Source of the DNA: an uncultured Dehalococcoidaceae bacterium
GTDB taxonomy: Bacteria; Chloroflexota; Dehalococcoidia; Dehalococcoidales; RBG-16-60-22
Direction of reading: 5' to 3'
Length of the DNA stretch: 64,000 nucleotides
Assembly (NCBI GenBank): GCA_964615345.1
Contig: CAZTMR010000002.1
Location: 17,428-81,427 of the forward strand
Shown here: one piece after another, positions 31,701 through 45,940 of the stretch
Numbering within the stretch: the first letter of the stretch is position 1
Layout: each line of letters opens with the position of its first letter
The notes under the pieces: model-generated
What the model was told of the DNA's origin: nothing
The model's input: only the letters and a program-made list of their open reading frames with translations
Database searches by the model: none
Translations under genes and position numbers: made by a program

Positions 31701-32486
31701 ATGGACAGAGAGGTACTGAAAAACCGGGAGAACCGGGTGGCAGAGCTTATCACCGGCGCGGCCAGGGTGGTCTTCTTTACCGGCGCCGGAATCAGCACGG
31801 AATCAGGCATCCCTGATTTCCGCAGCCCCGGCGGTATCTGGGAGCAGCTGGACCCGGAAGACTTCACCTACCAGAAGTTTCTCAGCAGCGCCGAATCACG
31901 GAAAAAACACTGGCGGCTTCTCTGGGGCGGACGCATCGTTGCGGAAGCCCGCCCCAACCCCGCCCACATCGCCATCGCCGAGCTTTACCGCATGGGCAAA
32001 GCAGACTGCGTCATCACCCAGAACGTAGACAACCTGCACCAGCAGGCCGGCGTCCCCGGGGACAGGATATTCGAGCTGCACGGCAATATGCAGTCGGTGG
32101 TATGCCTGAACTGCGGCCGGCGCTTTTCCCTGCCGCGCATCAGGGCCCGGCTGGACAGCGGGGAAGAAACCCCTGACTGCGAGGTCTGCGGCGGCATATT
32201 GAAGCCGGATGTGGTCATGTTCGGCGAGGCGCTGCCGGAAGCGGTGCTCCGGGAAGCCGCCGCCCGCTCCCGCGAGTGTGACCTGTTTATCGTCGTCGGC
32301 TCCACGCTGGTGGTCTATCCGGCCGCCTATCTGCCCGCTTATGCCCTGGACGCGGGCGCCCGGCTGGTCATCATAAACCTCAGCCCCACCCCCTACGACG
32401 ATGACGCCGATGTCCTCATCCCGGCCCGGGCGGGAGAGACGATGAGCGCCATAGCCGAAAAGGTAAAAGCACAAACCGACGGTTGA
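31701..32486 (+). CDS. cobB: NAD-dependent protein deacylase, Sir2 family (CobB-type)
   Basis: 'FFTGAGISTESGIPDFRS', 'VITQNVDNLHQ', Zn ribbon 'CLNCG...CEVCGG', 'VVGSTLVVYPA'. Confidence 0.9.
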   Translation: MDREVLKNRENRVAELITGAARVVFFTGAGISTESGIPDFRSPGGIWEQLDPEDFTYQKFLSSAESRKKHWRLLWGGRIVAEARPNPAHIAIAELYRMGKADCVITQNVDNLHQQAGVPGDRIFELHGNMQSVVCLNCGRRFSLPRIRARLDSGEETPDCEVCGGILKPDVVMFGEALPEAVLREAAARSRECDLFIVVGSTLVVYPAAYLPAYALDAGARLVIINLSPTPYDDDADVLIPARAGETMSAIAEKVKAQTDG

Positions 32487-32557
32487 TTTGCTCCGGTGGT
32501 CTGTTCTATAATTTGACCTGCGTGTGGAAGGGAGCCAGACTCTGGCGCGCGCCAGTA

Positions 32558-33532
32558 ATGAAGCAGATGGGATTAAGCGGTAAAATACTCGCCGGAGACG
32601 TTTCCGCCGCCGCCCGGCTCATCAGCGGCATCGAAGACGAAGCGCCAGAAGCTCTCGCCGAGGTGAGCCAGCTTTATCCCCGGACCGGTAACGCCTACGT
32701 AATCGGCATTACCGGGTCTCCCGGCTCCGGCAAGAGCACGCTCACCGGTAACCTCGTCTCCCACTTCCGGACCAGGGAACTGACCGTGGGCGTGATTGCC
32801 GTGGACCCCACCAGCGCGTTTACCGGCGGGGCGATTCTGGGTGACCGGGTGAGGATGCAGGCACACGGCGCGGATAAGGGGGTTTTCATCCGCAGTCTGG
32901 CCACCCGCGGCTGGGTGGGCGGGCTGGCGCGGGCTACCCTCGGCGTCATCCGGGTAATGGATGCCATGGGCAAGGACATTATCCTGGTGGAAACGGTGGG
33001 TTCCGGACAGATAGAGGTGGATATCACCCGGGCGGCAGACAGCACCATCATCGTCCTGGTGCCGGGCGCCGGTGACGAAATCCAGATGATGAAGGCGGGC
33101 ATCCTGGAAGCCGCCGATATCTTCGTCATCAACAAGGCCGACCGTGGCGGTGCGGACGTAATGAAGACAGACCTGGAGACCATGCTCAAGGCAAAGGCAG
33201 CTTCTCCGGATACCTGGCAGCCGGACATAGTCCTGACCGAAGCCATCTATGACCGGGGTACCGCCGGGCTGGCCGCAGAAATCTTCCGCCACCGTGACTA
33301 CCTGACTTCGAGAGGTGAGCTGACCGCGCGCCGCAGAGCCAGGATTAAACTGGAGCTTATGGAGACGATAGAAGGTTTTCTCAGAGACTATATCCACGAT
33401 ATTGATGCAGGTGATTACCTGGAAAAGCTGGTAGACACTTTGATGGAGAGAAAGACGGACCCCCGCTCCGCCGCCCGGGAAATCACCGGACGCCTGGCCG
33501 GAGACCTGCGCCGCCGGCGCGGCGGCGAATAG
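32558..33532 (+). CDS. meaB: MeaB/ArgK-type G3E GTPase (B12-mutase chaperone)
   Basis: 'GITGSPGSGKSTL' (P-loop), 'VDPTSAFTGGAILGDR', 'ILVETVGSGQ', 'INKADR'. Start set at ATG 32558. Confidence 0.85.
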   Translation: MKQMGLSGKILAGDVSAAARLISGIEDEAPEALAEVSQLYPRTGNAYVIGITGSPGSGKSTLTGNLVSHFRTRELTVGVIAVDPTSAFTGGAILGDRVRMQAHGADKGVFIRSLATRGWVGGLARATLGVIRVMDAMGKDIILVETVGSGQIEVDITRAADSTIIVLVPGAGDEIQMMKAGILEAADIFVINKADRGGADVMKTDLETMLKAKAASPDTWQPDIVLTEAIYDRGTAGLAAEIFRHRDYLTSRGELTARRRARIKLELMETIEGFLRDYIHDIDAGDYLEKLVDTLMERKTDPRSAAREITGRLAGDLRRRRGGE

Positions 33533-33547
33533 CGGAAGGAGAAGAGA

Positions 33548-34693
33548 ATGGACTTCACCTTGAATGAAGAGCAGAAAATGCTGCGGACGATGGTGCGAGA
33601 CTTTGCCGAGAAGGAGCTGGAGCCGATTGCGGCGCAGATAGACGAAGACGCCGCTTTCCCGGCGGAGAGCGTCCGGAAAATGGCGGAGCTCGGCCTGATG
33701 GGTATTCCCTTTCCGGAAGAATACGGCGGCATGGGCAGCGGTATGCTCAGCTTCGCCATCGCCGTGGAGGAAATCGCCCGCGTCTGTGCCTCCACCTCGG
33801 TTATTTACTTGGTCACCGCCGGGCTCGCCGCTCAGCCCATTTACCACTTCGGTAGCGAGGAGCAGAGACGCCGCTTCGTGCCGCCGCTCGCCGGCGGAGA
33901 GAAGCTCTCCTGCTTTGCCCTTACCGAGACCGGCGCCGGCAGTGACCCGGCGGCCATGGAAACCACCGCTACCCGCAAAGACGGCGGCTACCTGCTCAAC
34001 GGCAGCAAGATTTTCATCACCAACGGCGCCGAGGCCGATATCATACTGGTCTTTGCCACCATGGACAAATCACTGCGCCACCGCGGCATCACCGCTTTCG
34101 TCGTGGAGAAAGACAGCCCGGGCTTTTCCGTGGGCAAGCATGAAAACAAGCTGGGGATAAGGGCCTCCTCCACCGTGGAGCTGGTCTTCGAAGACTGCTA
34201 CGTGCCGGAGGAAAACCGCATCGGCAACGAAGGCGACGGCTTCAAAATCGCCCTGAACGCCATCGATGAAAGCAGGGTAATCGTCGCCGCGCAGGCGCTG
34301 GGCATCGCCCAGGCCGCCTACGAGAAGGCACTTGCCTACGCCAGGGAGCGCCAGCAGTTCGGCCAGCCTATCGCCAGTTTCCAGGCCATCCAGTGGATGC
34401 TGGCCGATATGGCCACCCGGATTGACGCCGCCCGCATGCTGACCTACCGCGCCGCCTGCCTCCAGGACAGCGACCAGTTCTTCGTCAAAGAGGCGGCCAT
34501 GGCCAAGGTCTTTGCCGCCGAGACCGCCATGTGGACCGCCACCAGCGCCATCCAGATTTACGGCGGCTACGGTTACAGCAAGGAGTACCCCCTGGAACGC
34601 TACTTCCGCGACGCCAAGATAACCGAAATCTACGAGGGCACTTCCGAGATGCAGCGGCTGACCATCGCCCGCCAGATTATTCGTGAGGGATGA
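33548..34693 (+). CDS. Acyl-CoA dehydrogenase (short/branched-chain type)
   Basis: '[15 protein letters not shown]', '[10 protein letters not shown]', '[34 protein letters not shown]' (catalytic Glu context). Confidence 0.9.
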
Positions 34694-34697
34694 GGAT

Positions 34698-36458
34698 ATG
34701 AACAGCGAAAAGACCACCCGCCAGATCCTGGAAGAAAAGGCCGAACCGGGAGAGCGTATCCCTCTCTACAACCCGGAAGCGCTCAAGAAAATGGCCGGGG
34801 AATTAGAACGCTGGAAAAATAACGTGGTCAGGGAGCAGGACCGCCAGAACTGGACGTCAACTCCCCGTACCATCCTCGGTTCGGAAATCCCGCGGGAACT
34901 GCTCTACACCCCGCTCAATAACGCCGGGCTGGACTACCGGAAGGACCTGGGTTTCTCCGGAGAGGAGCCCTACACCCGCGGCATCCATCCCAATATGTAC
35001 CGTGGCCGCACCTTTACCATGCGCCAGCTCTTCGGCGCCGGCTCCCCGGAGCAGTGCAACCAGCGGATGAGAAACCTGCTGGAACACGGCGCCACCGGCA
35101 CCAACTGGGCGCTGGACCTGGCCACGGTGCAGATGTTTGACTCTGACGAGCCGGAAGCCAGGGGGCAGGTAGCCACGGTGGGGGTTCCCATCGATTGCGT
35201 GGAGGATATGGAGGTAATCTGCCGCGATATCCCCATTGATAAGGTCAGCGCCTCCATCGTCACCCACTACCCGCGGAATACCGCCATCACTTTCCCGATG
35301 TACCTGGTAATGGCGGAGCGCCGCGGCATCCCCTGGGAGCAGCTTGCCGGCAGCGTGCAGAACGATTTTATTATGGAAAGCCTGGTGCGCAGCGCTTCCG
35401 AATATATCCCGCCGCGGGACGACTTCCGCATCCAGTGCGACAACATCGAGTTTATCCGCCGGCACGTACCCAGATGGAACTACGTTACCCTGAACGGCTA
35501 CAACCTGCGGGAATGGGGCACTTCCGGCGTCACCGAGATGGCCGTGGCCTTGGCCAACGGCATCGCCATCCTGGAGGAGATGTCCCGCCGGGGCCACGAC
35601 ATCGACTGGGTGGCGGAGCGGCTGGCTTTCTTCTGGGCGCCGGCCAATGACTTCTTCGAAGAGGTAGCCCGCATCCGGGCGGTGAGAAGGCTGTGGTACA
35701 AGATAATGAAATACCGCTTCGAGGCGAAAAAGCCACGCTCGATGTGGATGCGCTGCCACGTGCAGACCTCCGGCGTCTCCCTGACCCGGGAGGAGCCGAT
35801 GAACAACGTGATACGTGCCGCCTACCACGCCCTGGCCGCCGTGCTCGGCGGGGCGCAGTCCCTGCACGTGGACTCGTACGATGAGGCCTACTCCGTCCCT
35901 TCCGAAGAAGCCTCCCTGCTCTCCCTGCGCACCCAGCAGATAATCGAGGCGGAGACCCAGGTCACCCAGGTGGTCGACCCCCTCGGCGGCTCTTTCTACG
36001 TGGAAGCGCTGACCGAGGAAATCGAAAAAAGAATTCTGGGCGAGGTGGACGAAATCGAGCGGCGGGGCGGCATCGTGGAGGTGGTGGCCAGCGGCTGGCT
36101 GCACCAGAAGGTCGTCCGGCACATAGAGCGCGAGCAGAGAATGATCGAGAGCGGCGAAATCAAGGTGGTGGGACGCAACTACCACCGCGACCCCAACCTG
36201 GAGATGCCCGATGTCCGGGTGCACGAGTACGATGAAAGCATCGCCCGGGAGATGGGGGAGAAACTGGCGAAGCTGAGAGAGCGGCGGGATAACGATAAGG
36301 TAAACCGGAGTCTGGCTGCGCTCAAAGAAGCCTGCCAGCGCGGCGACAACGTCATGGAGTACACCCTGGAATGCGCCCGGGCGGACGCCACCGAGGGCGA
36401 AATGCGCCGGGCCTTTATCGAGGCTTTCGGCTCCTGGAAGCCGCCGATCTACGTTTAG
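34698..36458 (+). CDS. Coenzyme-B12 acyl-CoA mutase, large (substrate/TIM-barrel) subunit; specificity unassigned
   Basis: By eye it aligns with methylmalonyl-CoA mutase: 'FTMRQLFGAG', 'ALDLATVQMFDSD', 'AGSVQNDFIMESLVRS', 'TLNGYNLREWG', 'HVQTSGVSLT', 'SLHVDSYDEA'. It has no fused B12 domain. Confidence 0.85.
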   Translation: MNSEKTTRQILEEKAEPGERIPLYNPEALKKMAGELERWKNNVVREQDRQNWTSTPRTILGSEIPRELLYTPLNNAGLDYRKDLGFSGEEPYTRGIHPNMYRGRTFTMRQLFGAGSPEQCNQRMRNLLEHGATGTNWALDLATVQMFDSDEPEARGQVATVGVPIDCVEDMEVICRDIPIDKVSASIVTHYPRNTAITFPMYLVMAERRGIPWEQLAGSVQNDFIMESLVRSASEYIPPRDDFRIQCDNIEFIRRHVPRWNYVTLNGYNLREWGTSGVTEMAVALANGIAILEEMSRRGHDIDWVAERLAFFWAPANDFFEEVARIRAVRRLWYKIMKYRFEAKKPRSMWMRCHVQTSGVSLTREEPMNNVIRAAYHALAAVLGGAQSLHVDSYDEAYSVPSEEASLLSLRTQQIIEAETQVTQVVDPLGGSFYVEALTEEIEKRILGEVDEIERRGGIVEVVASGWLHQKVVRHIEREQRMIESGEIKVVGRNYHRDPNLEMPDVRVHEYDESIAREMGEKLAKLRERRDNDKVNRSLAALKEACQRGDNVMEYTLECARADATEGEMRRAFIEAFGSWKPPIYV

Positions 36459-36478
36459 AAGCGAGAGGTCAAGACAAA

Positions 36479-36913
36479 ATGGCGCAGAAAAAGAGTAAAG
36501 TAAAGGTGCTCCTGGCCCAGTTCCCCCTGGAAGCGCACAACCGGGGTGTCATCACCGTGGCCGGCATGCTCAAAGATGCCGGTATGGAGGTGGTGCTCAT
36601 CGGCAACGAGTTGCCGGAGCGGATAATCGATTCCGCCATCCAGGAAGACGCGGATGTCATCGGCGTGAGCACCTACTGCGGCGGCGAGCTGGCCCTGGGT
36701 GCCGACCTTATGGCGAGCGCGGAAGAAAAGGGCATCAGGGACAGCGCCGTTTTCCTGCTCGGGGGTATCTTCCCGCCGGGGAACCGGGACAAGCTGAAAA
36801 AACTGGGCTTCAGCGGCGTTTTCCTCTCCGCCGAGCGCGACGAAATAGTCGCCTGCATCGAGGCAGCCCTGACGGAAAAGCGGGCGGCCGCTCAGTCTCC
36901 GGGCGCCTCGTAG
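36479..36913 (+). CDS. Acyl-CoA mutase small subunit (B12-binding Rossmann domain)
   Basis: 'KVLLAQFPLEAHNRGVITVAGMLKDAGMEVVLIG...DADVIGVSTYCGG...VFLLGGIFP' shows the B12-binding fold, with ExHxxG in place of DxHxxG. Start set at ATG 36479. Confidence 0.8.
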   Translation: MAQKKSKVKVLLAQFPLEAHNRGVITVAGMLKDAGMEVVLIGNELPERIIDSAIQEDADVIGVSTYCGGELALGADLMASAEEKGIRDSAVFLLGGIFPPGNRDKLKKLGFSGVFLSAERDEIVACIEAALTEKRAAAQSPGAS

Positions 36914-37329
36914 AGCCGGACCACCGTCTCCCCTTCCACCACCAGCTTACCGTCCTGATTGGCGCAGGTGGTCCTGGCGGTGACGATTCCCTTGTCCTTG
37001 CGCACGCCGATTACCTCGACCGTGGCGGTTACGGTATCCCCTATTTTCACCGGCCGGAGAAACCGGCTGGAATGGGAAAGCAGGATAACCAGACCGGGAA
37101 GCCCGGCGGCGGCCGCCGAGATGAGCGATATGGCGATAACTCCGTGGGCAATTCGCCCGCCGAACGGCGTCTTCCGGGCGAACTCCTCGTCCAGGTGCAC
37201 CGGGTTATGGTCCCCGGAGACTTCAGCAAACTGGCTAATGTCTTTCTCCGTAATCGTCTTGCGGTGCGTGGTGGTATAACCGATGTCCACGCCCAGCCTG
37301 TCCAAGATGGATGGCTCGTTTTCGGTCAC
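36892..37329 (-). CDS. MaoC-like (R)-specific enoyl-CoA hydratase / hot-dog fold
   Basis: 'FAEVSGDHNPVHLDEEFARKTPFGGRIAHGV' (hydratase 2 motif). Confidence 0.85.
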   Translation of the reverse strand: MTENEPSILDRLGVDIGYTTTHRKTITEKDISQFAEVSGDHNPVHLDEEFARKTPFGGRIAHGVIAISLISAAAAGLPGLVILLSHSSRFLRPVKIGDTVTATVEVIGVRKDKGIVTARTTCANQDGKLVVEGETVVRLYEAPGD

Positions 37330-37350
37330 GGTTCACCTCCTGCCACAGTT

Positions 37351-38139
37351 TTAATCATCCGGCACTTCCACTGATTCCCCGGCCATAATAGCCGCGCCCA
37401 GGGCGGTAACTATCTGGGGATGGGGCGGCAGCAGCAGCCTGACTCCCAGTCTTTCTTCCACCGCCCGGATAAGCCCGGTGTCCAGGCCACCGCCCCCGCT
37501 CAGGGCGCAGTCAGCCTCCAACCCCACCTTGTCCGCCAGGGCGGAAATCTTGTCCGCCAGCGCCCGGTGCACCCCGGCCAGGATGTCTTCCCGGGCGGCG
37601 CCCTCCGCCACCCGGGAGACGGCTTCCGATTCGCCGAAAACGGCGCAGCCAGTACTGAAGGCGACCGGGCTTTTTGCTTTCAGGGAAAGCGGGCCGATAT
37701 CTTTCAACTCTACCTGGAGAACGTTAGCGATTACTTCCATAAAGCGGCCGCTGCCGGCGGCGCACTTCTCGCTGACGGCAAACCCGGTCACCCGGCCGCT
37801 TCCGCCAACTTTTATCACCTGGCTGGATTGCGCCTGCACGTCGATTACCGTCCGCGCCGAAGGAAAGATGCTGTGGACACCCCGCGCGCAGCAACGGATA
37901 TCAGTGCCTCTTCCGGCCGGGAAAGGGATGTTGCCGGAACCCTGCCCGGTGGCCACCGCCGCAGCGATATCCAGCGCCGACAGCCCCATCTTGTCCAGCA
38001 GTTCTGCGCGCAGTCTGCCGGCGGCCTCTTTATAGTTCACCCCGGAAGGCAGCACGTGGCAGGCCAGGAGTTCCCCGTCCCCGATGACCACCCCCTTGCT
38101 CGTTCTCGAACCGATATCAATGCCCAGGTAATAAGCCAT
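37351..38139 (-). CDS. BcrD/BadG/HgdC-type ATPase (electron-activating subunit), copy 2
   Basis: 'YLGIDIGSRTSKGVV' (ASKHA phosphate 1); cluster-ligand cysteines 'EKCAAGSGRF' and 'STGCAVFGESE'. Confidence 0.85.
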   Translation of the reverse strand: MAYYLGIDIGSRTSKGVVIGDGELLACHVLPSGVNYKEAAGRLRAELLDKMGLSALDIAAAVATGQGSGNIPFPAGRGTDIRCCARGVHSIFPSARTVIDVQAQSSQVIKVGGSGRVTGFAVSEKCAAGSGRFMEVIANVLQVELKDIGPLSLKAKSPVAFSTGCAVFGESEAVSRVAEGAAREDILAGVHRALADKISALADKVGLEADCALSGGGGLDTGLIRAVEERLGVRLLLPPHPQIVTALGAAIMAGESVEVPDD

Positions 38140-38145
38140 TCCGCT

Positions 38146-39039
38146 TCACTCCGGCTGGAAAAAGGTCGCCTCCCCCAGCTCCCGCTCTTTCCTGGCAACC
38201 GTTTCCCCCCTGGCCAGCGCTTTCCGGACAATGTCTTTCCCCATCAGGGCTGCCCCCAGCGCGCCGCTTATCAGCGGGTCTTCCGGCACAAGGACTTCCC
38301 GGCCCAGGTTCTCCCGGACCGCCCTGACCACGCCACTGTTTTTAGCCACCCCGCCGGTAAACACCACCTCCGGCTCCACTTTCAGCTGCCGCAGCATGCC
38401 GACCGCCCGGCTGGCGATGGCGTGGTGCAGTCCGGCCACAATGTCTGCCACCGGAACGCCTTCAGTAAGACGGGCGGTGACTTCTTGCTCGGCAAAGACG
38501 GTGCAGGTATTGCTGATGCTGGCGCGGCGGGTAGATTGCAGAGAGATACTGCCCAGTTCTCCCAGCTCCAGCCCCAGTGTCCGGGCGATGACCTCCAGGA
38601 ACCGTCCGGTCCCGGCGGCGCACTTGTCATTCATCACGAAGTTAACCAGCTTGCCGCCCTGCAGCTTCATCCCTTTGGCGTCCTGCCCGCCGATGTCCAG
38701 CGCCGTCTTCACCCCGGGAAAAAGGCTGGCTATTCCCCGCGCGTGGCAGGTCAGCTCCGTTATCTGGCGGTCGGCAAAGGGCACGCTTATGCGGCCGTAG
38801 CCGGTGGCCACCACGCAAGCGATGTCCGGGAAGGGCAGTCCGGCGAGGGCCAGCGCCTCCTCCATAACCTTATTGGCCAGGCGGCGGTGCTCGGCGCCGG
38901 TATGACTTTCCACGCGGGAGAACACCCGCTCTCCGGCATCAATAATTACCACCTTCGTCATCGTCGAACCGAGGTCGATACCGGCAAAATAGAGTGGCTC
39001 CGCTTTCAATTCAGTCTCTTTCTCTGAAAAAGTTATCAC
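38146..39039 (-). CDS. BcrA/BadF/HgdC-type ATPase (electron-activating subunit), copy 1
   Basis: 'FAGIDLGSTMTKVVI', 'NDKCAAGTGRF', 'SNTCTVFAEQE'; adjacent to a second, clearly different paralogue. Confidence 0.85.
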   Translation of the reverse strand: MITFSEKETELKAEPLYFAGIDLGSTMTKVVIIDAGERVFSRVESHTGAEHRRLANKVMEEALALAGLPFPDIACVVATGYGRISVPFADRQITELTCHARGIASLFPGVKTALDIGGQDAKGMKLQGGKLVNFVMNDKCAAGTGRFLEVIARTLGLELGELGSISLQSTRRASISNTCTVFAEQEVTARLTEGVPVADIVAGLHHAIASRAVGMLRQLKVEPEVVFTGGVAKNSGVVRAVRENLGREVLVPEDPLISGALGAALMGKDIVRKALARGETVARKERELGEATFFQPE

Positions 39040-39073
39040 GCAGTATACCGCAAGGAAAGCTCCAGCCGACCGG

Positions 39074-40237
39074 TCAGCCGATTATCTCCAGGAATGCCTG
39101 CACCCTCGTCCGCAGCTGTGCCAGGGCTGCCTTGCTGTAATCGTGCTCCAGGTAAATGGACGGCAGCCCGATGTTCTCCAGATAGTCCTTCAGCGCCGGC
39201 ACTTCGTAGCCGTGGATATCACAGTAGCGCAGGGCCTGCAAAATCACCCCGTTGACGTTCCAGTCCCGGGCGTAATCACCCAGGTAGCCAAACCGGTTCT
39301 CCAGGTCTGCCTGATAGTCTTTCTTGCCGTCACTGCCGGGGCCGGTATCACGGAACGTCCGCGGGCTGCGCAGCGCCACCAGGTAGCGGTCGGCCAGCCC
39401 GTCCAGCGGGTCGTCGGTAGCTTCCACCAGCGGGAAATAGTCCCGGCTGCCTATGGTGGTATCATCCATGACCACGTTCCCGCCCAGGCTTTCCACCAGG
39501 TCAACCAGCGCCGTGTTATCGATAATGCTTCCCCACGTCATCAGCCGCGCCCCGGCCTGTGCCGGGCCGTCTCTGCGCTCCCTGACTTCAGTGATGACCT
39601 GCTCCAGAAGCCCGTTTGCCTCGGCGGCCGGCAGGCTGGCCACGGCCACCATCACCCGCACCGTTTCCACCCCGGATATCCGCGGCGGGTCAGGCTTCCT
39701 CAGATCGTACAGTTCCCGCACCAGGGAACGCTGCCGGTTATGAGTGTCCACCGCCTGCCGCAGCCTGGCCGCGGTGAGCTCCTGCCCGGTGAGGTTTTCC
39801 AGGGTACGCTTGAAATCTTCCAGCAGCACCCGGTGCTGCTGCCGGGCCGCCCGGTGGGTGGTATGCGGCGTATCAATAAAGTGAGTGTAAGCCGGTTCCA
39901 GGGACATCCGCCAGATATGGGTGGTCTTTTCGCTCACCTCGCAGCCGTGGGCAAAGACCACCCCGTCCAGAAAGTCATACTTTCCTTTCAGCCCCAGGTC
40001 CATGACACTGCGCAGGAAGGGGCAGACCACGGTGGGCAGGCAGGCGTCCGCCCGGGTGATTGTCTCGTTGATATCTCCCAGCAGGCGGTACGGCACCAGG
40101 TCGAGTGCCGTGAGCATTTCTACCACCGGGTAAATGTCCAGGTAGCCGATAACCTTTTTCCCTTCCGCCTTTAGCTCTTCAGCCCGGGCCGCCCGGCGGT
40201 CATAAATCTCTTTTACCCGTTTCAGTCCCGTGGTCAT
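39074..40237 (-). CDS. 2-hydroxyacyl-CoA dehydratase / benzoyl-CoA reductase family catalytic subunit (BcrC/HgdB-like)
   Basis: 387 aa; family-typical N-terminus 'KVIGYLDIYPVVEMLTALDLVPYRL' and conserved Cys 'LPTVVCPFLRS', 'AHGCE', 'LRYCD'. Its start overlaps the upstream subunit's stop. Confidence 0.8.
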   Translation of the reverse strand: MTTGLKRVKEIYDRRAARAEELKAEGKKVIGYLDIYPVVEMLTALDLVPYRLLGDINETITRADACLPTVVCPFLRSVMDLGLKGKYDFLDGVVFAHGCEVSEKTTHIWRMSLEPAYTHFIDTPHTTHRAARQQHRVLLEDFKRTLENLTGQELTAARLRQAVDTHNRQRSLVRELYDLRKPDPPRISGVETVRVMVAVASLPAAEANGLLEQVITEVRERRDGPAQAGARLMTWGSIIDNTALVDLVESLGGNVVMDDTTIGSRDYFPLVEATDDPLDGLADRYLVALRSPRTFRDTGPGSDGKKDYQADLENRFGYLGDYARDWNVNGVILQALRYCDIHGYEVPALKDYLENIGLPSIYLEHDYSKAALAQLRTRVQAFLEIIG

Positions 40238-41586
40238 TACCAGTCGAACCCCGCTTTTTTTCTTACTTCCCGGTAGTGGTTCATCGTCTCCTCGAACGTC
40301 TCCGCCCGGCGCAGGGCGTCCGCCGGGTCGAACAGGTTAAGGTCTACGATGTCCCCTTCCACGACCAGGGAAGGCACCTTAAACTGCTCCATAAGCTGGT
40401 TCTGCACCATCGTCAGGTGGTTGGTGGCGGTGCGGCAGGTGAGCAGCGGGTGCAGCAGTATCCCATCGCATCGGTACTCTCTGACCATTTCAAGATAGGG
40501 ATGGGCGAAATATCCCCACCAGTCCCCGGCCCGGAAAGCATCTTCAAAGTAGCCGGAAAAATACTGGTAGGTCAGCCCGGCGATGCGCTCCAGGGGGTCG
40601 CCGATTCCGCTCAGGTCCACCGGCTTCGGCGGGTGGTAAGCCCAGCTTTCGGTGACGAAGTTCCAGCCCCGCTCCGCAAGCTGGTTGAAAAACTTCAGGC
40701 TGTGCCACGGCGGCAGCTCGGCGAAGGCAAGCCGGAACTTCTCCTCCGGCACCGCCCCGGCGCCACTGTCCACCATTGCCTTCACTTCATCGTACATATC
40801 CCGGTACAGCCCGGCGGTTATCTCCGGGTCGGACGCCATATACAGGGAAGCCGGCATACTGCTCCAGAAGTCCCGCGAGTGCATCGGGCAGGGGCTCGCC
40901 TTGCGCAGCTCGTTCACCTCATACCATACCCGGTTCATCTCGATGGTATCGTCGACGACCTTCCCGAGGCGGTCCCAGTCCATTTTCCGGCCGAGCAGTT
41001 CTTCCAGGAACCGGACGAACTCTTTCAGTTCCGCCACCAGGAAGCGAATGTTATGCTCGCGGTTACCCTCGAGGCGGCTTTCCGGAACGCCGGGATGAGG
41101 CATCTCCAGCACCCAGACCGGCGCATCCAGATAACGTCCCAGCGCCTGGAACCACTTGTAGCGGGTGTCACAGAAATAGCCGGAGCCGAGCAGCAGTGTG
41201 GGCGGGGGCATGCCGCCCATCGGGGCTTCCGGAGGGATTTCCCCCAGCTCCTTCATCCGCGCCGCGTAGCCCAGGCAATTCCGGGCGTAGCCGCACATAT
41301 GAGTGGGGAAACCGTCCGAATCGGAGTAAGCCAGGTAGTCCGGCGCGGCGCCGAAGGCAGCACAGACCGCGCCGTAGTCTTCCGGGTAAATGGCGGCCAC
41401 GTCCATAGCCCGGAGCACGGCGTCACCACCCCACCAGTTGACCATGCACCAGGCCACCGGTTTCCCTTCCCGGCGGGCGGCTACCGCCTGCTGGTACGTC
41501 CCGTCCACCAGCGCCCGCAGCGGATACATCGTTTTCAGCCGGTTGATGGCTCTCCTGCTCTTCTCTTCGGACACGGTATCTACCAT
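40237..41586 (-). CDS. 2-hydroxyacyl-CoA dehydratase / benzoyl-CoA reductase family catalytic subunit (BcrB/HgdA-like)
   Basis: 449 aa; 'GKPVAWCMVNWWGGDAVLRAMDVAAIYPEDY', 'PTHMCGYARN', 'GYFCDT', 'HPLLTCR'. Confidence 0.8.
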   Translation of the reverse strand: MVDTVSEEKSRRAINRLKTMYPLRALVDGTYQQAVAARREGKPVAWCMVNWWGGDAVLRAMDVAAIYPEDYGAVCAAFGAAPDYLAYSDSDGFPTHMCGYARNCLGYAARMKELGEIPPEAPMGGMPPPTLLLGSGYFCDTRYKWFQALGRYLDAPVWVLEMPHPGVPESRLEGNREHNIRFLVAELKEFVRFLEELLGRKMDWDRLGKVVDDTIEMNRVWYEVNELRKASPCPMHSRDFWSSMPASLYMASDPEITAGLYRDMYDEVKAMVDSGAGAVPEEKFRLAFAELPPWHSLKFFNQLAERGWNFVTESWAYHPPKPVDLSGIGDPLERIAGLTYQYFSGYFEDAFRAGDWWGYFAHPYLEMVREYRCDGILLHPLLTCRTATNHLTMVQNQLMEQFKVPSLVVEGDIVDLNLFDPADALRRAETFEETMNHYREVRKKAGFDW

Positions 41587-41664
41587 CCCGTTACTTCATC
41601 TGGAAACAGTCCGGGGAACACGGCATAGTTCCGCCGTCAAGTAATCCCGGGAATAACGCCGGCA

Positions 41665-42081
41665 TCAGTCCAGCAAGCGGAAAAGGGGGCGGGCGCTCTC
41701 CCCGGCGGAATAACGGTCACCGGAGAACACTTTGCTGCCGTCTATCTTTACCTTTTTCCCGATGAGCCCCATATCGGCGGCCGCCGGGTCGGTACCCGTA
41801 AGGTTTCCCATCACCCAGGGGCCCTCGTTCATCTCCACCAGCAGAATCACGTAAGGAGCTTCGTCTTCGCGCCCCTCCGCGGCCACATTATTGCTGGTAA
41901 AGGTCTGGATGCGGCCTTCTCCGACAAGCTCGGTTATTTCCATATCGGTCCCGCCGCAGCCGCGGCAGACCATTTTGGGAGGCGTGGTGACCACCCCGCA
42001 CTGGGGACACTTCAGACCCAGCAGCCGGTTTTCTTTGAGTGCCTCGTTATATTCCTTGAAAGTCAGCCTGTATTCCATCAT
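41665..42081 (-). CDS. DUF35 OB-fold / rubredoxin-like zinc-ribbon protein (thiolase partner)
   Basis: 'LLGLKCPQCGVVTTPPKMVCRGCGG' followed by an OB-fold segment; directly downstream of the thiolase. Confidence 0.85.
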   Translation of the reverse strand: MMEYRLTFKEYNEALKENRLLGLKCPQCGVVTTPPKMVCRGCGGTDMEITELVGEGRIQTFTSNNVAAEGREDEAPYVILLVEMNEGPWVMGNLTGTDPAAADMGLIGKKVKIDGSKVFSGDRYSAGESARPLFRLLD

Positions 42082-42111
42082 TAGCCTCCGTTTTCGCTGA
42101 ATCGCTCTTCT

Positions 42112-43290
42112 CTACCAGCCGCGCTGCAGAATCATATTCACCAGCGTGCCGCCGTCTCCGCCCAGGGTATCGGTCATGCCAGTCCGGGCGCCTTCCACCA
42201 TCCGTTCCGGCTCCACCTCGCCGCGCAGCTGTTTGGTCACCTCGTAGACCTGTCCGGCCCCGGTGGCGCCGATGGGGTGCCCCTTGGACTTCAGTCCGCC
42301 GGACGCGTTAATGGCTACCTTACCGCCGATTGCCGCCTCGCCTTTCTCCCAGGCCTCGCCCGATTTACCGTATTCGAAGAAGCCGAGCCCTTCGGCGGCA
42401 ATCAGGCTGGCGATACTGAAACAGTCGTGCAGTTCGCAAAAGTCGATGTCCGCCGGCTTCACCCCGGCCATCTCGTAGGCGCGCTGAGCGGACAGCTCCC
42501 GCGCTTTCAGCCGGGGCAGATAGTCACCCTGGCTGACCAGAGGTCCGGAGGAAGCCTGCCCCACCCCGGTGATAAAGACCGGCTTATCAGTCAGCTTGCG
42601 CGCGTTTTCCTCCGTGGTGAGCACCAGAGCGGCCGCGCCATCCGAAAACGGGCAGCAGTCATGGAGCTGGAGCGGCGTGCTCACCATAAACGACTTGAGC
42701 ACCGCCGGCACGTCCACCTCTTTCCGCAGGTGCGCCTTGGGATTGTGCACCCCGTAGCGGTAGGACTGCACGGATACCGCCGCCATCTGTTCCTTGAGCT
42801 TCTCCAGGGGGATGCCGTATTTCGCCGCGTAGAGGTGGGCGAGCATGGCGAACAGGGCGGGAAAGGTAATCCCCGCCGGATACTCATAACGGCTGTCACT
42901 GAACATGGCAAAGGTGCGCGTGGCCAGAGCGGTACCCATGGTAGCCGCCCTTTCCACCCCGCCGGTCAGCACCACATCGTAAAAGCCGGAGGCAACCCAC
43001 ATAAAAGCATCCCGCACCGCCATACTTGCCGAGGCACAGGCGCCCTCGTAACGGTTGGCCGGAACATTGTAGCAGCCGATGTTTTCGGCGGCGAAAGCCT
43101 GCACCATCCCCTGCCCTTCGGAAAAGTCTCCCAGGACGTTGCCCAGGAACAGGGCCTGCATATCTTTCGGTTTCAGGTTGGATCCGCTTATAGCTTCCAT
43201 GGCCGCTTCAGCAAACAGCTCCACGCTGGTCTTTTCCTGGGCCGCCCCGAATTTGGTTTCACCCACGCCGACGACAGCTACTTTTCTCAT
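42112..43290 (-). CDS. Thiolase (SCP-x / BbsB-like, non-acetoacetyl type)
   Basis: 'MRKVAVVGVGETKFG', active-site 'YEGACASASMAV', 'CELHDCFS', 'NASGGLKSKGHPIGATG'. ATG 43290 has a GGAGGAGG SD. Confidence 0.85.
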   Translation of the reverse strand: MRKVAVVGVGETKFGAAQEKTSVELFAEAAMEAISGSNLKPKDMQALFLGNVLGDFSEGQGMVQAFAAENIGCYNVPANRYEGACASASMAVRDAFMWVASGFYDVVLTGGVERAATMGTALATRTFAMFSDSRYEYPAGITFPALFAMLAHLYAAKYGIPLEKLKEQMAAVSVQSYRYGVHNPKAHLRKEVDVPAVLKSFMVSTPLQLHDCCPFSDGAAALVLTTEENARKLTDKPVFITGVGQASSGPLVSQGDYLPRLKARELSAQRAYEMAGVKPADIDFCELHDCFSIASLIAAEGLGFFEYGKSGEAWEKGEAAIGGKVAINASGGLKSKGHPIGATGAGQVYEVTKQLRGEVEPERMVEGARTGMTDTLGGDGGTLVNMILQRGW

Positions 43291-43351
43291 CTGAAATACC
43301 TCCTCCAAAGGTTATTGACCAATACCAAGTTACTATATTCTGCCATTGCCG

Positions 43352-45409
43352 TCAATTTGCCAGCAGCTCGGCGATATCCATCACTTTTACCTTCTCTTCC
43401 ACTTCTTCCAGCTTGAGCCCGTCCTCGAACATCTGCAGGCAGTAGGGACAGGCGGTAGCCACCGTTCCGGCGTTCACCGCCATCGCCTGCTCCGCCCTCA
43501 TTTCGTTAATGCGCCGCCCTCTCTTCTGCTCTTCCAGCCAGAGGTGCCCCCCGCCCGCTCCGCAGCAGAAACCGCGCTCCCGGTTCTTTTCCATCTCCGC
43601 CAGTTTGACACCGGGCATACTGCCCAGCAACCGGCGCGGCGCATCGTAAATATCGTTGTATCGGCCCAGGTAGCAGGAGTCATGGTAGGTCACCACCCCC
43701 CCGGCAATACCTTTTCCGGCTTCCAGCCTGCCCTCCTGCATCAGGTCGGCAATAAACCCGGTGTGATGACTGACCTCGAAGTTCCCGCCGAATTGCGGGT
43801 ACTCGTGCTTCAGGGTGTTGAAACAGTGCGGACAGCCGGTGACAATATTCTTCACGCCGTAGTTCTTAAGCAGGTCAATGTTCGTCTCCGCCTGGATTTG
43901 AAAGAGGTACTCGTTGCCCAGCCGGCGGGCGGGGTCGCCGCAGCAGGTCTCTTCTACACCCAGTATGCCGAAGTTTACCCCCGCCTCCGCCAGCAGCCGG
44001 GCAATCGCCCGTGCCACCCGCGTGCTGCGCTCTTCCAGTGCTTCCGTACAGCCCACCCAGAACAATACATCTACATCACCCGCATCGGCTAAAGTCTTTA
44101 TCTCCAGCCCTTCCGTCCAGTCAGTCCGGGCCAGCGTGGTGCCGCGCCACGGATGCCCCCGCGCCTCGATGCTTTTCAGCGCTCCTTCGCCGGTCTCCGG
44201 AATGGACGCCCGTTCCATCACCAGGCTCCGCCTCATCTCCACTACCTTGGTCATCGGCTCGATGCTCACCGGACAGGCCTGGTGGCAGGCAAAGCAGGCG
44301 GTGCAGTTCCAGATCTCGTCTTCGCCGATTACTTCGCCGGGCAGCGCCCGCTCGGCCGCCTCTCCGTTTCCCCTGAGCAGCGCCGGCGCCCGCTCCAGCC
44401 AGTTCCCTTTCAGGTCCTGAATGATTTTCTTCGGGCTTAAGGGTTTGCCGCTGAGGTAGGCGGGACAGCTGTCCTGGCAGCGCCCGCACCGGGTGCAGGC
44501 GTCCAGGTCAAGCAGGTGCTTCCAGGCAAAGTCTTCAATTCTGGACGCCCCGAAGCTCTCCGCAACCTCCAGGTCGATTGGCACCAGTACTCCCTTCGGC
44601 TCCAGCGATTTGAAATAAACGTTCACCGTGGAGACGATGATATGCCACAGGCGGTTCCAGTACAGGGATACGTAAATAATGGCCCCGATGGAGAGGAGGG
44701 AATGCAGCCACCAGGTAACCCGGTGTCCGGCGAGCAGGCCGGCCTGGCTGAGTCCGCTCAACCCCCGCGCCAGGACGTAGCCGCCGGGCGACCACGGCGC
44801 CCAGCCCGGGTTGGTCTGCAGCTCAGTGGCGGCGATGCGGAAACCCTCCACGATGAATCCGGTAAGCACCACCGTGAAAATGAGCAGCAGGGCCACCAGG
44901 TCCTCGGTCTTACTGTCCAGCCGTTCCGGCCTCTGCCCGTAGCGGCGGTGCACCGCCAGTATCACCGCGATAAGCACCAGGACGCCGAAAACGTCCACCA
45001 CCGCCGAGTAAGCGAGGTAAACTCCGCCTTCCAGGAAGTGAAAGAAGTAATGGCTGACGGCGTCCAGGAAAGAGGCCAGCAAGAATATAATGCATCCGGC
45101 GAAAATCAGGAAATGGATGACACCGGGATAAAACTCCCGGGCGCGCAGGTCTCCGGCGGAAAAGCGCCGGTGGCTCAGGCCGTCAGCGATGCCAACGAAG
45201 CGGCGGTGGGTGAGCAAATCGATGACGCTGACGGCAAAGGCGCGTATTCTCTGCCAGGAGAAGGCGACGCGGCTGTCCGTCCGGCCCACCCGCCACAGCC
45301 TCACGCGCCGGTACAGCGCGTAAACAAAAACGCCGAGAGCGATTACCCCCAGCGCGTAGATGACTTCACCGTACCGGATGTTCCAGAAAATCTCTCGCGA
45401 TGCTTCCAT
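43352..45409 (-). CDS. Membrane-bound Fe-S oxidoreductase: NarI/DsrM-like N-terminal membrane domain fused to an HdrD/DsrK-like (2x[4Fe-4S] + CCG) domain
   Basis: 5-6 N-terminal TM helices with conserved His. Ferredoxin motifs 'CTRCGRCQDSCP' and 'CTACFACHQACP'. CCG motifs 'ETCCGDP' and 'GFCCGAGGG'. Confidence 0.8.
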   Translation of the reverse strand: MEASREIFWNIRYGEVIYALGVIALGVFVYALYRRVRLWRVGRTDSRVAFSWQRIRAFAVSVIDLLTHRRFVGIADGLSHRRFSAGDLRAREFYPGVIHFLIFAGCIIFLLASFLDAVSHYFFHFLEGGVYLAYSAVVDVFGVLVLIAVILAVHRRYGQRPERLDSKTEDLVALLLIFTVVLTGFIVEGFRIAATELQTNPGWAPWSPGGYVLARGLSGLSQAGLLAGHRVTWWLHSLLSIGAIIYVSLYWNRLWHIIVSTVNVYFKSLEPKGVLVPIDLEVAESFGASRIEDFAWKHLLDLDACTRCGRCQDSCPAYLSGKPLSPKKIIQDLKGNWLERAPALLRGNGEAAERALPGEVIGEDEIWNCTACFACHQACPVSIEPMTKVVEMRRSLVMERASIPETGEGALKSIEARGHPWRGTTLARTDWTEGLEIKTLADAGDVDVLFWVGCTEALEERSTRVARAIARLLAEAGVNFGILGVEETCCGDPARRLGNEYLFQIQAETNIDLLKNYGVKNIVTGCPHCFNTLKHEYPQFGGNFEVSHHTGFIADLMQEGRLEAGKGIAGGVVTYHDSCYLGRYNDIYDAPRRLLGSMPGVKLAEMEKNRERGFCCGAGGGHLWLEEQKRGRRINEMRAEQAMAVNAGTVATACPYCLQMFEDGLKLEEVEEKVKVMDIAELLAN

Positions 45410-45445: not shown

Positions 45446-45940
45446 TTAACGGAGACGGGTCACGGCGACGTATATGCCCAGCCCCACCGCCAGCAGGTCA
45501 AGGACGATCCGGAACACGCCGAAAGGTATCCCCCCGAACCAAATGCCAAACCCAATGCTCACCAGATAGCTCAGCGCCACTCCCAGGCTGGCCACCGCTG
45601 CCAACCCTCGGCCGCGCTTGCGGTTAACCGCCAGTCCCACCACTTCAGCGATGGCGTAACCGACGGCCGGCCCAAGCAGGATACTGAAGAAAAAGAAGGG
45701 AATGACCCCACGCAGCACCCCCCACAGAACCCCGGTCGCCGCTGCCATCCCCAGTGCGGTGCCAACCGCTCTCAAATAATAAGGCAGGGGAACGCGGTAG
45801 GTGGGCAGCTTGTAGAGCCGGGCACACTGCGGGCACCTGGCCCCCACCGGCGTCTGCACCATGCACCTAGGGCAGATAGGTTTGCCGCACTTGCCGCAGC
45901 GCAGGTTGGTTTCCACCTCAGGATGAGCCGCGCATTTCAT
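45446..45940 (-). CDS. B-box-type zinc-finger membrane protein
   Basis: 'CAAHPEVETNLRCGKCGKPICPRCMVQTPVGARCPQC' followed by 4 TM helices. Confidence 0.65.
   Translation of the reverse strand: MKCAAHPEVETNLRCGKCGKPICPRCMVQTPVGARCPQCARLYKLPTYRVPLPYYLRAVGTALGMAAATGVLWGVLRGVIPFFFFSILLGPAVGYAIAEVVGLAVNRKRGRGLAAVASLGVALSYLVSIGFGIWFGGIPFGVFRIVLDLLAVGLGIYVAVTRLR

Follow-up and report, generated by a model that had tools for sequence, protein, structure and literature searches.

A conserved gene module pairing a B12-dependent acyl-CoA mutase with a benzoyl-CoA reductase-like radical enzyme, and its putative role in the rearrangement of short acyl-CoA esters

Two converging operons at positions 32558-45409 of a 64-kb stretch of DNA from a Dehalococcoidia bacterium (contig CAZTMR010000002.1; the whole stretch is hereafter called the window) raise the question of why a B12-dependent acyl-CoA mutase is encoded beside an ATP-dependent enzyme of the benzoyl-CoA reductase (BCR)/2-hydroxyacyl-CoA dehydratase (HAD) family, and what the two might do together. 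An earlier reading, made without database searches (the sequence-only reading), had described the operons as one island for acyl-CoA conversion that lacks an entry enzyme, and its coordinates and family assignments for all twelve genes, as well as the 22-nt overlap between the operons, were borne out by the open reading frame (ORF) list and by Pfam and NCBIfam scans. The plus-strand operon comprises four genes encoding the chaperone MeaB, an acyl-CoA dehydrogenase (ACAD) of the butyryl-CoA dehydrogenase (Bcd) type, and the large and small subunits of the mutase (MutL and MutS, together MutLS). The eight genes of the minus-strand operon encode, in order of transcription, a membrane Fe-S oxidoreductase of the electron transfer flavoprotein (ETF):menaquinone oxidoreductase (EMO) type, a thiolase, a DUF35 protein, two HGD-D subunits (HGDab, of which HGDa is the catalytic subunit), two BcrAD ATPases, and a PhaJ-type hydratase. 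Intergenic gaps within each set range from -11 to 91 nt, varying with the choice of start codon, and such spacing implies that each is a tight operon. Where their 3' ends converge in the window, the equivalent junction of the related locus L001 shows an overlap of 4 nt.

The pairing of the two operons extends well beyond this lineage. A scan of one genome per species of the Genome Taxonomy Database (GTDB), queried with an alignment of the catalytic HGD-D subunit, yielded 74 loci that were compared with the window proteins by tblastn. Considering only evaluable loci whose HGDa is at least 58% identical to that of the window, and counting a mutase gene within 10 kb as paired, the mutase accompanies the radical enzyme in 27 of 32. 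All 14 evaluable loci outside Chloroflexota are paired (Smithella/Syntrophales, Thermodesulfobacteriota, a Firmicute, and a Leptospirales metagenome-assembled genome [MAG]), and the adjacency spans at least five phyla. The genes converge in Dehalococcoidia and Syntrophales and run in one direction, in the order thiolase-DUF35-HGDab-ATPases-mutase, in five other loci (L020, L023, L026, L055, and L064), with flanking genes that differ between lineages. A reciprocal metagenome scan, seeded on two mutase motifs only, found HGD subunits in 26 of 26 evaluable loci; as all of its matches were close relatives (78-92% identity across the 85 residues of the query), this test is phylogenetically shallow. 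The exact HGDa sequence of the window, with either start codon, was unmatched among the indexed contigs, and homologues were used instead. The identities of HGDa and MutL to their window counterparts co-vary (r=0.88). Within Dehalococcoidia the entire neighbourhood is syntenic, housekeeping flanks included, which alone proves little; across phyla, however, the two operons recur together in different gene orders, so that a lack of co-conservation, which would have spoken against a single island, is clearly not what we found.

The conserved core of this gene set consists of MeaB, MutLS, HGDab, the two ATPases, and the thiolase/DUF35 pair. In most lineages other than Dehalococcoidia, a short-chain dehydrogenase (SDR) gene lies directly upstream of the thiolase gene, and the SDR position of the module is filled by any of three types that are not orthologous to one another, that of thiolase/DUF35 by either of two. 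That non-orthologous parts occupy the same positions points to selection on function. The hydratase is missing from several lineages, and the SDR from this window. As the sequence-only reading had noted, the window is without genes for Etf, a CoA ligase/transferase, a glycyl-radical enzyme, or a 3-hydroxyacyl-CoA dehydrogenase: a Pfam scan of the 30 further ORFs that cover its likely genes found none of these, and every ORF with a Pfam match was housekeeping. The sole caveat is a generic SDR gene fragment, cut off by the window start, at a distance of 32 kb from the island and probably unrelated to it. The hydroxyacyl-CoA dehydrogenase that seems to be missing here would be the SDR found inside the module in most other lineages. 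The island is thus very probably a single functional module, compact and laterally mobile, with an obligate pairing of two uncharacterised enzyme branches. The literature searched contained no description of a joint chemistry of such a mutase and radical enzyme, nor any report of Dehalococcoidia with a BCR/HGD enzyme and a mutase. The likeness to fumarate-adduct, alicyclic, or aromatic acid pathways first drawn for the island did not hold up, as no genes of such pathways were found at about 150 related loci (tblastn with window proteins, and Pfam for selected neighbours), most of which sit among housekeeping genes.

What kind of enzyme is encoded by the HGD-D and ATPase genes? Its four adjacent genes have the makeup of a class I BCR, with two HGD-D subunits and two different BcrAD-type ATPases, in agreement with the four-subunit ATP-dependent enzyme proposed at the outset. 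In ATPase subunit 1 the motifs DKCAAGTG and SNTCTVFAE are conserved in all 40 family members aligned. Both ATPases retain two cluster-ligand Cys motifs, and their mutual identity of only 38% implies a heterodimer like that of BCR. The catalytic subunit, whose database copy P0001 starts at position 41574, retains equivalents of BzdO Cys95, Cys128, and Cys380, which belong to the open-site cluster common to HadB and BzdO, as well as those of Trp46 and Glu65. Arg replaces BzdO His131, a residue that MbdO likewise lacks. Scores against the BCR equivalog models are far under their cutoffs (BzdN, 182.7 versus 453.8; BzdO, 82.6 versus 448.6; BzdQ, 174.7 and 143.5 versus 380.2), and those against HadB/HadC likewise fall far below cutoff. 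Among clusters drawn at 50% identity, only two full-length representatives reach at least 45% identity, with a few fragments scoring higher; the next full-length relatives are at ~35-41%.

The second HGD-D subunit sets the window lineage apart from most of its family. BzdN holds an [8Fe-9S] double cubane through six cysteines (Cys36, Cys73, Cys100, Cys263, Cys293, and Cys327), and HAD beta subunits keep one cluster (PMC11971306). In the BzdN-like subunit of the window Asp, Thr, and Ser replace Cys36, Cys263, and Cys293, and the three cysteines that remain are those that HadC keeps. All six are kept in 60 of 73 family members, including the Smithella, Firmicute, and acetone-type copies and most of those from Dehalococcoidia. 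Their loss is confined to the Dehalococcoidia subclade of the window (related loci L003, L005, L006, L007, L011, L012, L015, L080, L111, and L119), where GYLC has become GYLD, DDxC has become DDxT/S/V/A/F, and KCPRTF has become RSPRTF or QNPRTF; L071 and L065 show a partial loss. The subclade seems to have repeated, recently and independently, the cubane loss from which HADs are proposed to have arisen, and the family as a whole appears to be a third branch of BCR/HAD enzymes, with BCR-like hardware in most members. A plain HAD-like rather than BCR-like identity, to which the three-Cys beta subunit had pointed, was dropped because most relatives keep all six cysteines. No ferredoxin or other donor-regenerating gene was found among the flanking genes scanned with Pfam or in the precomputed annotation of L001/L002 and L157, which fits a catalytic rather than a stoichiometric use of electrons. 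That the module outlived the loss of the cubane, with no donor gene nearby, also leads us to lean toward catalytic one-electron over stoichiometric two-electron chemistry.

Some loci vary in this part of the module. HGDab lies beside the mutase with no ATPase genes in the locus in L014, L100, L107, and L144 (and L061), and in a Desulfobacterium genome the ATPase genes sit with a second HGDab copy ~20 kb away (L062). A Bathyarchaeota MAG carries the four-subunit enzyme (L048, positions 10001-14259), with an HGDa 57% and ATPases 55-60% identical to those of the window.

The best solved relative of MutL is HcmA (4r3u, 394 bits), the large subunit of 2-hydroxyisobutyryl-CoA mutase (HCM), ahead of methylmalonyl-CoA mutase (MCM; 346 bits), and the architecture is that of HCM, with two subunits and a MeaB chaperone. 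The motifs GYNLRE and QNDFIME are common to all window-type mutases and to the mutase of L061, an acetone-type cluster discussed below, and are absent from HcmA and MCM. The MCM signature consists of Tyr89, Arg207, which binds the substrate carboxylate, and His244, with Tyr89 as the second carboxylate ligand; the pocket of HcmA reportedly features Ile90, Asp117, and Gln208. MutL has Leu at MCM-Tyr89/HcmA-Ile90, Ala at HcmA-Asp117, Arg at MCM-Arg207, and Asn at MCM-His244 (GYH motif). Only the Arg of the MCM set is therefore kept (NF006944, 445 versus a cutoff of 876), and none of the three HCM pocket residues; the acetone-type mutase of L061 also lacks Asp117. This Arg is kept in all window-type mutases and is followed by a two-residue insertion relative to HcmA Gln208, and the MCM-Tyr89 position is Leu or Ile throughout. 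The pocket is thus a hybrid, and the enzyme is not a canonical HCM but a member of a distinct clade of B12 acyl-CoA mutases. Positions in the pocket are occupied by bulky Phe and Trp in the Dehalococcoidia subclade versus Ser, Ala, and Leu in Syntrophales, which, speculatively, hints at a smaller substrate in Dehalococcoidia. In the Smithellaceae locus L040, two genes for B12-binding small subunits (14953-15606 and 15947-16333, minus strand) lie beside a single MutL gene.

The closest solved relatives of the ACAD are Clostridium difficile Bcd (5ol2, 436 bits) and short-chain acyl-CoA dehydrogenases (SCADs; ~405-411 bits), followed by short/branched-chain acyl-CoA dehydrogenase (335 bits) and isobutyryl-CoA dehydrogenase (297 bits). 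As a module member it is found mainly in Dehalococcoidia, with one 49% identical copy flanking L075. The hydratase matches (R)-specific enoyl-CoA hydratases (5cpg, 2e-24; 1iq6, 1.5e-20). For the thiolase, which is up to 80% identical in Thermodesulfobacteriota loci, the sequence-only reading had suggested with DUF35 a BbsAB-type pair; it scored 398.5 bits against PRK06064 and 374.6 against archaeal acetyl-CoA acetyltransferase, and the equivalog models gave 200.8 versus a cutoff of 750 for BbsB and 30.2 versus 250 for BbsA, so that the pair is nearer to the archaeal acetoacetyl-CoA thiolase type. The 685-residue membrane protein has its best match among solved structures in the Mycobacterium smegmatis EMO (9ojn, E=3.7e-106) and shows the EMO architecture of a membrane N-terminal domain, a 2x[4Fe-4S] domain, and two CCG domains for non-cubane clusters, a three-domain layout described for Syntrophus (bioRxiv 10.64898/2026.08.18.745454). 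It is a module member only in Dehalococcoidia. The Bcd-like ACAD and the match to a solved EMO together suggest the usual pair for oxidation at the level of butyryl-CoA, with the ETF encoded elsewhere. The likely start of MeaB is the ATG at 32558, preceded by a promoter-like TTGATT-18-TATAAT at 32483-32512, and that of MutS is at 36479, preceded by a GAGAGG ribosome-binding site; promoter and terminator scans gave counts no better than chance.

Table 1. Coordinates of the island genes and of two features outside the island, with the matches on which their assignment rests.
Feature	Position in window	Strand	Evidence
Generic SDR fragment, runs off window start	~1-756	minus	30-35% identical to SDRs of related modules
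Sir2/CobB-type NAD-dependent protein deacylase	31701..32486	plus	Pfam SIR2 9e-51; NCBIfam PRK00481.1-3 above cutoff
MeaB, G-protein chaperone of B12 acyl-CoA mutases	32558..33532 (ORF 32483-33532)	plus	Pfam MeaB 5.5e-83; TIGR00750 315.9 bits vs cutoff 240.75
Short-chain (butyryl-CoA-dehydrogenase-type) ACAD	33548..34693	plus	All three ACAD Pfam domains
Mutase large subunit (MutL), GYNLRE-motif clade	34683..36458	plus	Pfam MM_CoA_mutase 2.5e-162
B12-binding mutase small subunit (MutS)	36479..36913 (ORF 36371-36913)	plus	Pfam B12-binding 1.8e-16; TIGR00640 72.8 bits vs cutoff 57.45
3'-end overlap of converging stop-inclusive ORFs (22 nt)	36892..36913		ORF coordinates
PhaJ-type (R)-specific enoyl-CoA hydratase, MaoC, single hot-dog fold	36892..37329	minus	Pfam MaoC_dehydratas 2.4e-25
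ATPase subunit 2, electron-activating module	37351..38139	minus	Pfam BcrAD_BadFG 6e-43
ATPase subunit 1, electron-activating module	38146..39039	minus	Pfam BcrAD_BadFG 2.9e-64
HGD-D subunit, BzdN/HadC type	39074..40237	minus	PDB BzdN 2.7e-48, HadC 2.9e-31
Catalytic HGD-D subunit (HGDa), BzdO/HadB type	40237..41574 (ORF to 41586)	minus	PDB MbdO 1.7e-23, HadB 6e-23, BzdO 1.3e-19
DUF35 (zinc ribbon + OB fold), thiolase partner	41665..42081	minus	Pfam OB_ChsH2_C 8.7e-15, zf-ChsH2 3.3e-11
SCP-x/archaeal-type thiolase	42112..43290 (ORF to 43308)	minus	Thiolase Pfam domains
EMO-type membrane ETF:menaquinone oxidoreductase, 685 aa	43352..45409	minus	Pfam CCG x2 + Fer4

Taking these assignments together, we tentatively propose that the island encodes one module that rearranges and cleaves short acyl-CoA esters. 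After ATP-driven electron injection, the Fe-S enzyme would reversibly interconvert a 2-methyl-2-enoyl-CoA and a tertiary 2-hydroxy-2-methylacyl-CoA, which is the HAD reaction applied to an alpha-branched substrate. The mutase would then move the CoA-thioester carbon to the methyl group by a 1,2-shift, as in the HCM reaction, to give a linear 3-hydroxyacyl-CoA, from which an SDR would form the 3-oxoacyl-CoA for cleavage by thiolase/DUF35. A C4 version for the window, with candidate direction and chain length, would lead from isobutyryl-CoA or methacrylyl-CoA through 2-hydroxyisobutyryl-CoA, 3-hydroxybutyryl-CoA, and acetoacetyl-CoA to two acetyl-CoA, and electrons from the ACAD would pass via an ETF encoded elsewhere to EMO and on to menaquinone. 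We consider this combination of alpha-hydroxyl interconversion and linearisation by the mutase plausible, if short of probable. It would turn the minimal core (MeaB, SDR, thiolase, DUF35, HGDab, two ATPases, and MutLS) into an unbroken chain of reactions. The coupling of the two operons across phyla, the proximity of MutL to HcmA, and the two motifs that it shares with the acetone-type mutase of L061 argue for it, as do the 2-hydroxyisobutyryl-CoA mutase shown for a cluster of that kind in Desulfococcus biacutus, the retained three-Cys open site, the HAD-like absence of a distal cubane in the window lineage, and a Bcd/SCAD-like ACAD accompanied by a known type of acceptor.

Several observations weigh against this proposal. 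No HAD-family enzyme is known for a tertiary 2-hydroxy-2-methylacyl-CoA, and a literature search found no natural 2-hydroxyisobutyryl-CoA dehydratase. The six-Cys motif of most relatives and the heterodimeric ATPase of all of them are features of reductases (BCR and the double-cubane cluster protein DCCP) and not of dehydratases (PMC11971306). The mutase keeps an MCM-like Arg and lacks the Asp117 of HcmA, and its substrate could be a dicarboxylate or another compound. The patchy occurrence of the hydratase and the lack of an SDR in the window count here too. In acetone degraders, where a thiamine pyrophosphate (TPP) enzyme is thought to make 2-hydroxyisobutyryl-CoA, the proposal would give the HGD enzyme no obvious role, and for isobutyrate a route through a plain isobutyryl-CoA mutase (ICM) would be simpler.

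That simpler route is the strongest of the alternatives. Here the mutase would be an ICM, while ACAD, hydratase, SDR, and thiolase would beta-oxidise butyryl-CoA with EMO as acceptor, and the BCR/HAD-type enzyme would feed the crotonyl-CoA pool from, for example, 2-hydroxybutyryl-CoA, or serve an unrelated role. The Bcd-like ACAD is translationally coupled to the mutase, EMO is a known partner of butyryl-CoA oxidation, and in uncultured Syntrophales such genes are usually taken to encode a mutase combined with beta-oxidation (PMC7382037). Outside Dehalococcoidia, however, no ACAD belongs to the module apart from the copy flanking L075, yet the HGD-mutase pairing holds in 14 of 14 loci and would go unexplained. 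Moreover, HcmA is the top-scoring relative of the mutase, which has Arg at the MCM-Arg207 position, where HcmA and ICM/IcmF have Gln. We judge this route unlikely, though by no means far-fetched.

The proposed alpha-hydroxyl interconversion and mutase shift could also be extended to Smithella. Dismutation of propionate via a six-carbon intermediate has been proposed for Smithella propionica, with enzymes still unidentified in 2021 (PMC8892533) and 2026 (PMC13248872). In such a route two propionyl-CoA would condense to 2-methyl-3-oxopentanoyl-CoA, reduction and dehydration would yield 2-methylpent-2-enoyl-CoA, and the radical enzyme would re-hydrate the alpha carbon to 2-hydroxy-2-methylpentanoyl-CoA, which the mutase would convert to linear 3-hydroxyhexanoyl-CoA; oxidation and cleavage would then give butyryl-CoA and acetyl-CoA, the route being redox-neutral overall. 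In the Dehalococcoidia version, the added Bcd-type ACAD and EMO would oxidise the resulting butyryl-CoA. Propionate C1 would end up in acetate C1 and, through butyrate C2, in acetate C2, and C3 only in acetate C2 and butyrate C4. These carbon fates agree with the 13C labelling pattern that de Bok and co-workers reportedly obtained in 2001, although such labelling would follow from any route that includes this 1,2-shift. The complete module, SDR and hydratase included, is present in all four Smithella/Smithellaceae species genomes returned by the scan (L039, L040, L042, and L069), and one member sequence occurs on 106 contigs, Smithellaceae MAGs among them, with close relatives in the same cluster labelled Smithella sp. 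The module is far more widespread than known propionate dismutation, which weighs on this reading, and that the module (SDR, thiolase/DUF35, HGDab with two ATPases, PhaJ-type hydratase, and GYNLRE-clade mutase with MeaB) encodes the Smithella route is, in our view, rather unlikely.

Alternatively, the mutase and the radical enzyme might act on C5 dicarboxylyl-CoA esters, for example from mesaconyl-C1-CoA through 2-hydroxy-2-methylsuccinyl-CoA, 3-hydroxyglutaryl-CoA, and 3-oxoglutaryl-CoA to acetyl-CoA and malonyl-CoA, or by a 2-hydroxyglutaryl-CoA/glutaconyl-CoA route. The conserved Arg at the MCM-Arg207 position of all window-type mutases could serve such a substrate, HGD-D enzymes include 2-hydroxyglutaryl-CoA dehydratase, and MaoC enzymes include mesaconyl-CoA hydratases. 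We find this version improbable, given that the second carboxylate ligand of MCM, Tyr89, is Leu or Ile here, that the ACAD is Bcd-like and not of the glutaryl- or methylsuccinyl-CoA dehydrogenase kind, that the thiolase is nearest to acetoacetyl-CoA thiolases, and that the module contains no decarboxylase or CoA-transferase.

A further reading is the degradation of ketones (acetone or butanone); the closest studied relative of the module is the acetone-induced cluster of sulfate reducers. Acetone/ketone-induced clusters have been described in Desulfococcus biacutus, Desulfosarcina cetonica, Desulfotomaculum arcticum, and D. geothermicum; in these four species acetone induces a TPP enzyme, a B12 mutase, an SDR, and a thiolase, together with "benzoyl-CoA reductase-like" BCR/HGD subunits to which no role was assigned, and reports of MeaB and of DUF35 come from one of these species each (PMC8084838, PMC7888143, PMC4103992). 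The mutase of the D. biacutus cluster is cited as a 2-hydroxyisobutyryl-CoA mutase (PMC8084838, PMC7888143, PMC4103992). The earlier statement that the island matches no textbook cluster therefore stands as far as textbooks go, but a match does exist outside them. In our scan, L061/L062 of a Desulfobacterium MAG is an acetone-type cluster that includes genes for a TPP enzyme and a radical-SAM protein, and whose thiolase is 71%, DUF35 57%, HGDa 50%, and MutL 48% identical to those of the window, and L060 reproduces 'cluster B' of D. biacutus. Mutases of the L061 type and the window type are 42-48% identical, a range that matches the one published between the D. biacutus and Desulfotomaculum enzymes, and this is compatible with, and no proof of, the Desulfotomaculum mutases being of the window type.

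On the ketone reading, the ketone-activating genes would lie elsewhere in the genome. The homology to L061/L062 in mutase, thiolase, DUF35, and HGDab (~50%) and the acetone induction of such proteins in sulfate reducers speak for it. However, neither Pfam nor tblastn with the L061 genes found a TPP enzyme, a radical-SAM activase, or a gene similar to 3-hydroxy-3-methylglutaryl-CoA lyase (HMGL) in the window. The L061 TPP enzyme had no tblastn match in the other loci of the genome scan (L001-L076), except for one of 34% in the Bathyarchaeota locus L048, and the large Pfam-scanned ORFs flanking window-type loci encode acyl-CoA synthetases, an aldehyde:ferredoxin oxidoreductase, and housekeeping proteins, with no TPP enzyme found among them. 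A plain assignment to the acetone pathway was dropped on these grounds. With its setting among housekeeping genes and a mutase pocket unlike the acetone type (Arg versus Gly at MCM-Arg207, and Ala versus Leu at HcmA-Asp117), the ketone reading has a low probability.

A true class I BCR-like reductase, dearomatising or acting on alicyclic compounds and followed by modified beta-oxidation, was the direction in which the sequence-only reading had leaned. The four-subunit architecture, the match of the second subunit to BzdN as its best PDB hit, the double-cubane cysteines of most relatives, and the Trp46 and Glu65 equivalents of BzdO agree with it. It nevertheless seems quite improbable: every BCR equivalog model scores far below cutoff, the catalytic subunit is equally far from BzdO/MbdO and HadB, His131 is replaced by Arg, the distal cubane is lost in the window lineage, and substrates of C4-C6 are what one would expect from the ACAD, thiolase, and mutase. 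In addition, neither the window nor the Pfam-scanned neighbours of related loci contain a dienoyl-CoA hydratase, ring hydrolase, ferredoxin, or aromatic CoA ligase.

The strict co-location with the mutase would also be explained if the BCR/HAD-like complex were an ATP-driven reductive (re)activator of the mutase cobalamin instead of an enzyme acting on CoA esters. ATP-dependent reductive activators of corrinoid enzymes provide a precedent (PMC7317905, PMC6739815). Known corrinoid activators belong to a different protein family, adenosylcobalamin-dependent mutases are repaired via MeaB and an adenosyltransferase, and the catalytic subunit retains the open-site cluster together with the residues by which BzdO/HadB bind acyl-CoA and carry out catalysis, all of which makes this very improbable. 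That two unrelated operons are neighbours by inherited synteny alone, as the shared housekeeping flanks within Dehalococcoidia might suggest, is barely credible, being contradicted by co-location across phyla with rearranged gene orders and different flanks.

Three further candidates were considered and dropped. An acrylate pathway with a natural lactoyl-CoA mutase would leave the thiolase, DUF35, SDR, and hydratase without a role. Conversion of 3-hydroxy-2-methylacyl-CoA by the mutase to 4-hydroxyacyl-CoA, followed by a step like that of 4-hydroxyacyl-CoA dehydratase, was set aside because HAD/BCR chemistry begins by reduction and not by oxidation. With an alicyclic substrate, cyclohex-1-ene-1-carboxyl-CoA, alpha-hydration and shift would merely yield the ordinary beta-hydroxy product.

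Outside the island, the window carries housekeeping genes, including those for CdsA, PyrH, RRF, S2, IleRS, YidC, FeoAB, HerA/NurA, SecDF, the CCA enzyme, PlsY, YmdB, RNase Y, RecX, RecA, and UvrC, and close homologues are annotated as Chloroflexota/Dehalococcoidia MAG proteins. The Sir2/CobB deacylase gene lies directly upstream of MeaB, a position kept in the Dehalococcoidia loci L001, L003, L005, L006, and L018; in L014 it adjoins the mutase genes, with no MeaB match there. A functional tie to the island is possible but unproven, and the link is weak evidence because the housekeeping flanks are syntenic in the same loci. CobB removes lysine 2-hydroxyisobutyrylation, and its presence near the island may fit a route via 2-hydroxyisobutyryl-type CoA esters, or reflect plain synteny. 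A second deacetylase, of the Zn type, is encoded 6 kb upstream (25723-26754, plus strand). Between PlsY and the EMO gene, Dehalococcoidia loci keep a gene for a 164-residue protein (45446-45940, minus strand) that begins with a zinc ribbon rich in Cys (weak Pfam match to B-box), has several predicted membrane helices, and carries no family assignment. Farther away on the minus strand, a HerA-type helicase/ATPase and NurA nuclease pair (21078-24779) encloses a 193-residue ORF with no Pfam family match, and at 16411-19348 the gene for a fusion of a DtxR-type iron repressor with a FeoA domain adjoins a split FeoB, whose N-terminal GTPase ORF (18746-19348) overlaps its membrane ORF (17323-18786) by ~40 nt.

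The association of these genes was itself already known, although unexplained; what seems to be new is a variant built on two uncharacterised and widely mis-annotated enzyme clades. Such proteins are publicly annotated as 'benzoyl-CoA reductase subunit B' or '2-hydroxyacyl-CoA dehydratase', and these labels invite wrong claims of aromatic degradation by subsurface Dehalococcoidia and Syntrophales. The module may explain how some anaerobes rearrange the CoA esters of short branched fatty acids, and through it the HAD/BCR family could gain a new type of reaction, the shift of a hydroxyl group on acyl-CoA esters with an alpha branch. Knowing its chemistry would give a function to the acetone-induced 'BCR-like' proteins of sulfate reducers and might supply a concrete gene set for propionate dismutation by Smithella, a key organism of anaerobic digesters. 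The lineage-specific cubane loss offers, in effect, a natural experiment on how double-cubane reductases become single-cluster dehydratases.

The island can be set beside several known systems. Like the HcmAB mutase of Aquincola tertiaricarbonis (4r3u), its mutase has the large and small subunits as separate proteins, is accompanied by a MeaB-type chaperone, and is aliphatic at the MCM-Tyr89 position; it differs in Asp117 (Ala), Gln208 (Arg, with two residues inserted after it), and the GYH His (Asn). With class I BCR (BzdNOPQ, 8s02) the radical enzyme has in common two HGD-D subunits with two different ATPases, the six cysteines of its relatives, and the Cys, Trp46, and Glu65 equivalents of BzdO, but its catalytic subunit is remote (1e-19), has Arg for His131, is accompanied by a subunit missing three cubane cysteines, and is found in no aromatic-pathway context. 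The HADs (HadBC with HadI, HgdAB with HgdC) are about as similar in the catalytic subunit (HadB, 6e-23) as the BCRs, and share the three-Cys open site in alpha and, in the window lineage only, the predicted single-cluster Cys set in beta. The chemistry proposed for the window, elimination or addition of an alpha-hydroxyl via a ketyl radical, would be theirs as well. Unlike the one-gene homodimeric activator of HADs, the window operon has two distinct ATPase genes, most of its relatives carry the double-cubane motif, and the module includes no genes for a 2-hydroxyacid dehydrogenase or CoA-transferase. The EMO of Syntrophus aciditrophicus and M. smegmatis corresponds in its three-domain layout and similarity to 9ojn and pairs logically with a Bcd-type ACAD, whereas etfAB is neither adjacent nor elsewhere in the window. 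Finally, the acetone cluster of sulfate reducers has the same GYNLRE-clade mutase with MeaB, thiolase, DUF35, and BCR/HGD-like subunits. The window differs from it in the mutase pocket, in having no TPP ketone-activating enzyme with its radical-SAM activase (similar to the activating enzyme of pyruvate formate-lyase) and no HMGL-like gene, and in adding a Bcd-type ACAD and EMO, and its module is a relative of the acetone cluster and not a member of it.

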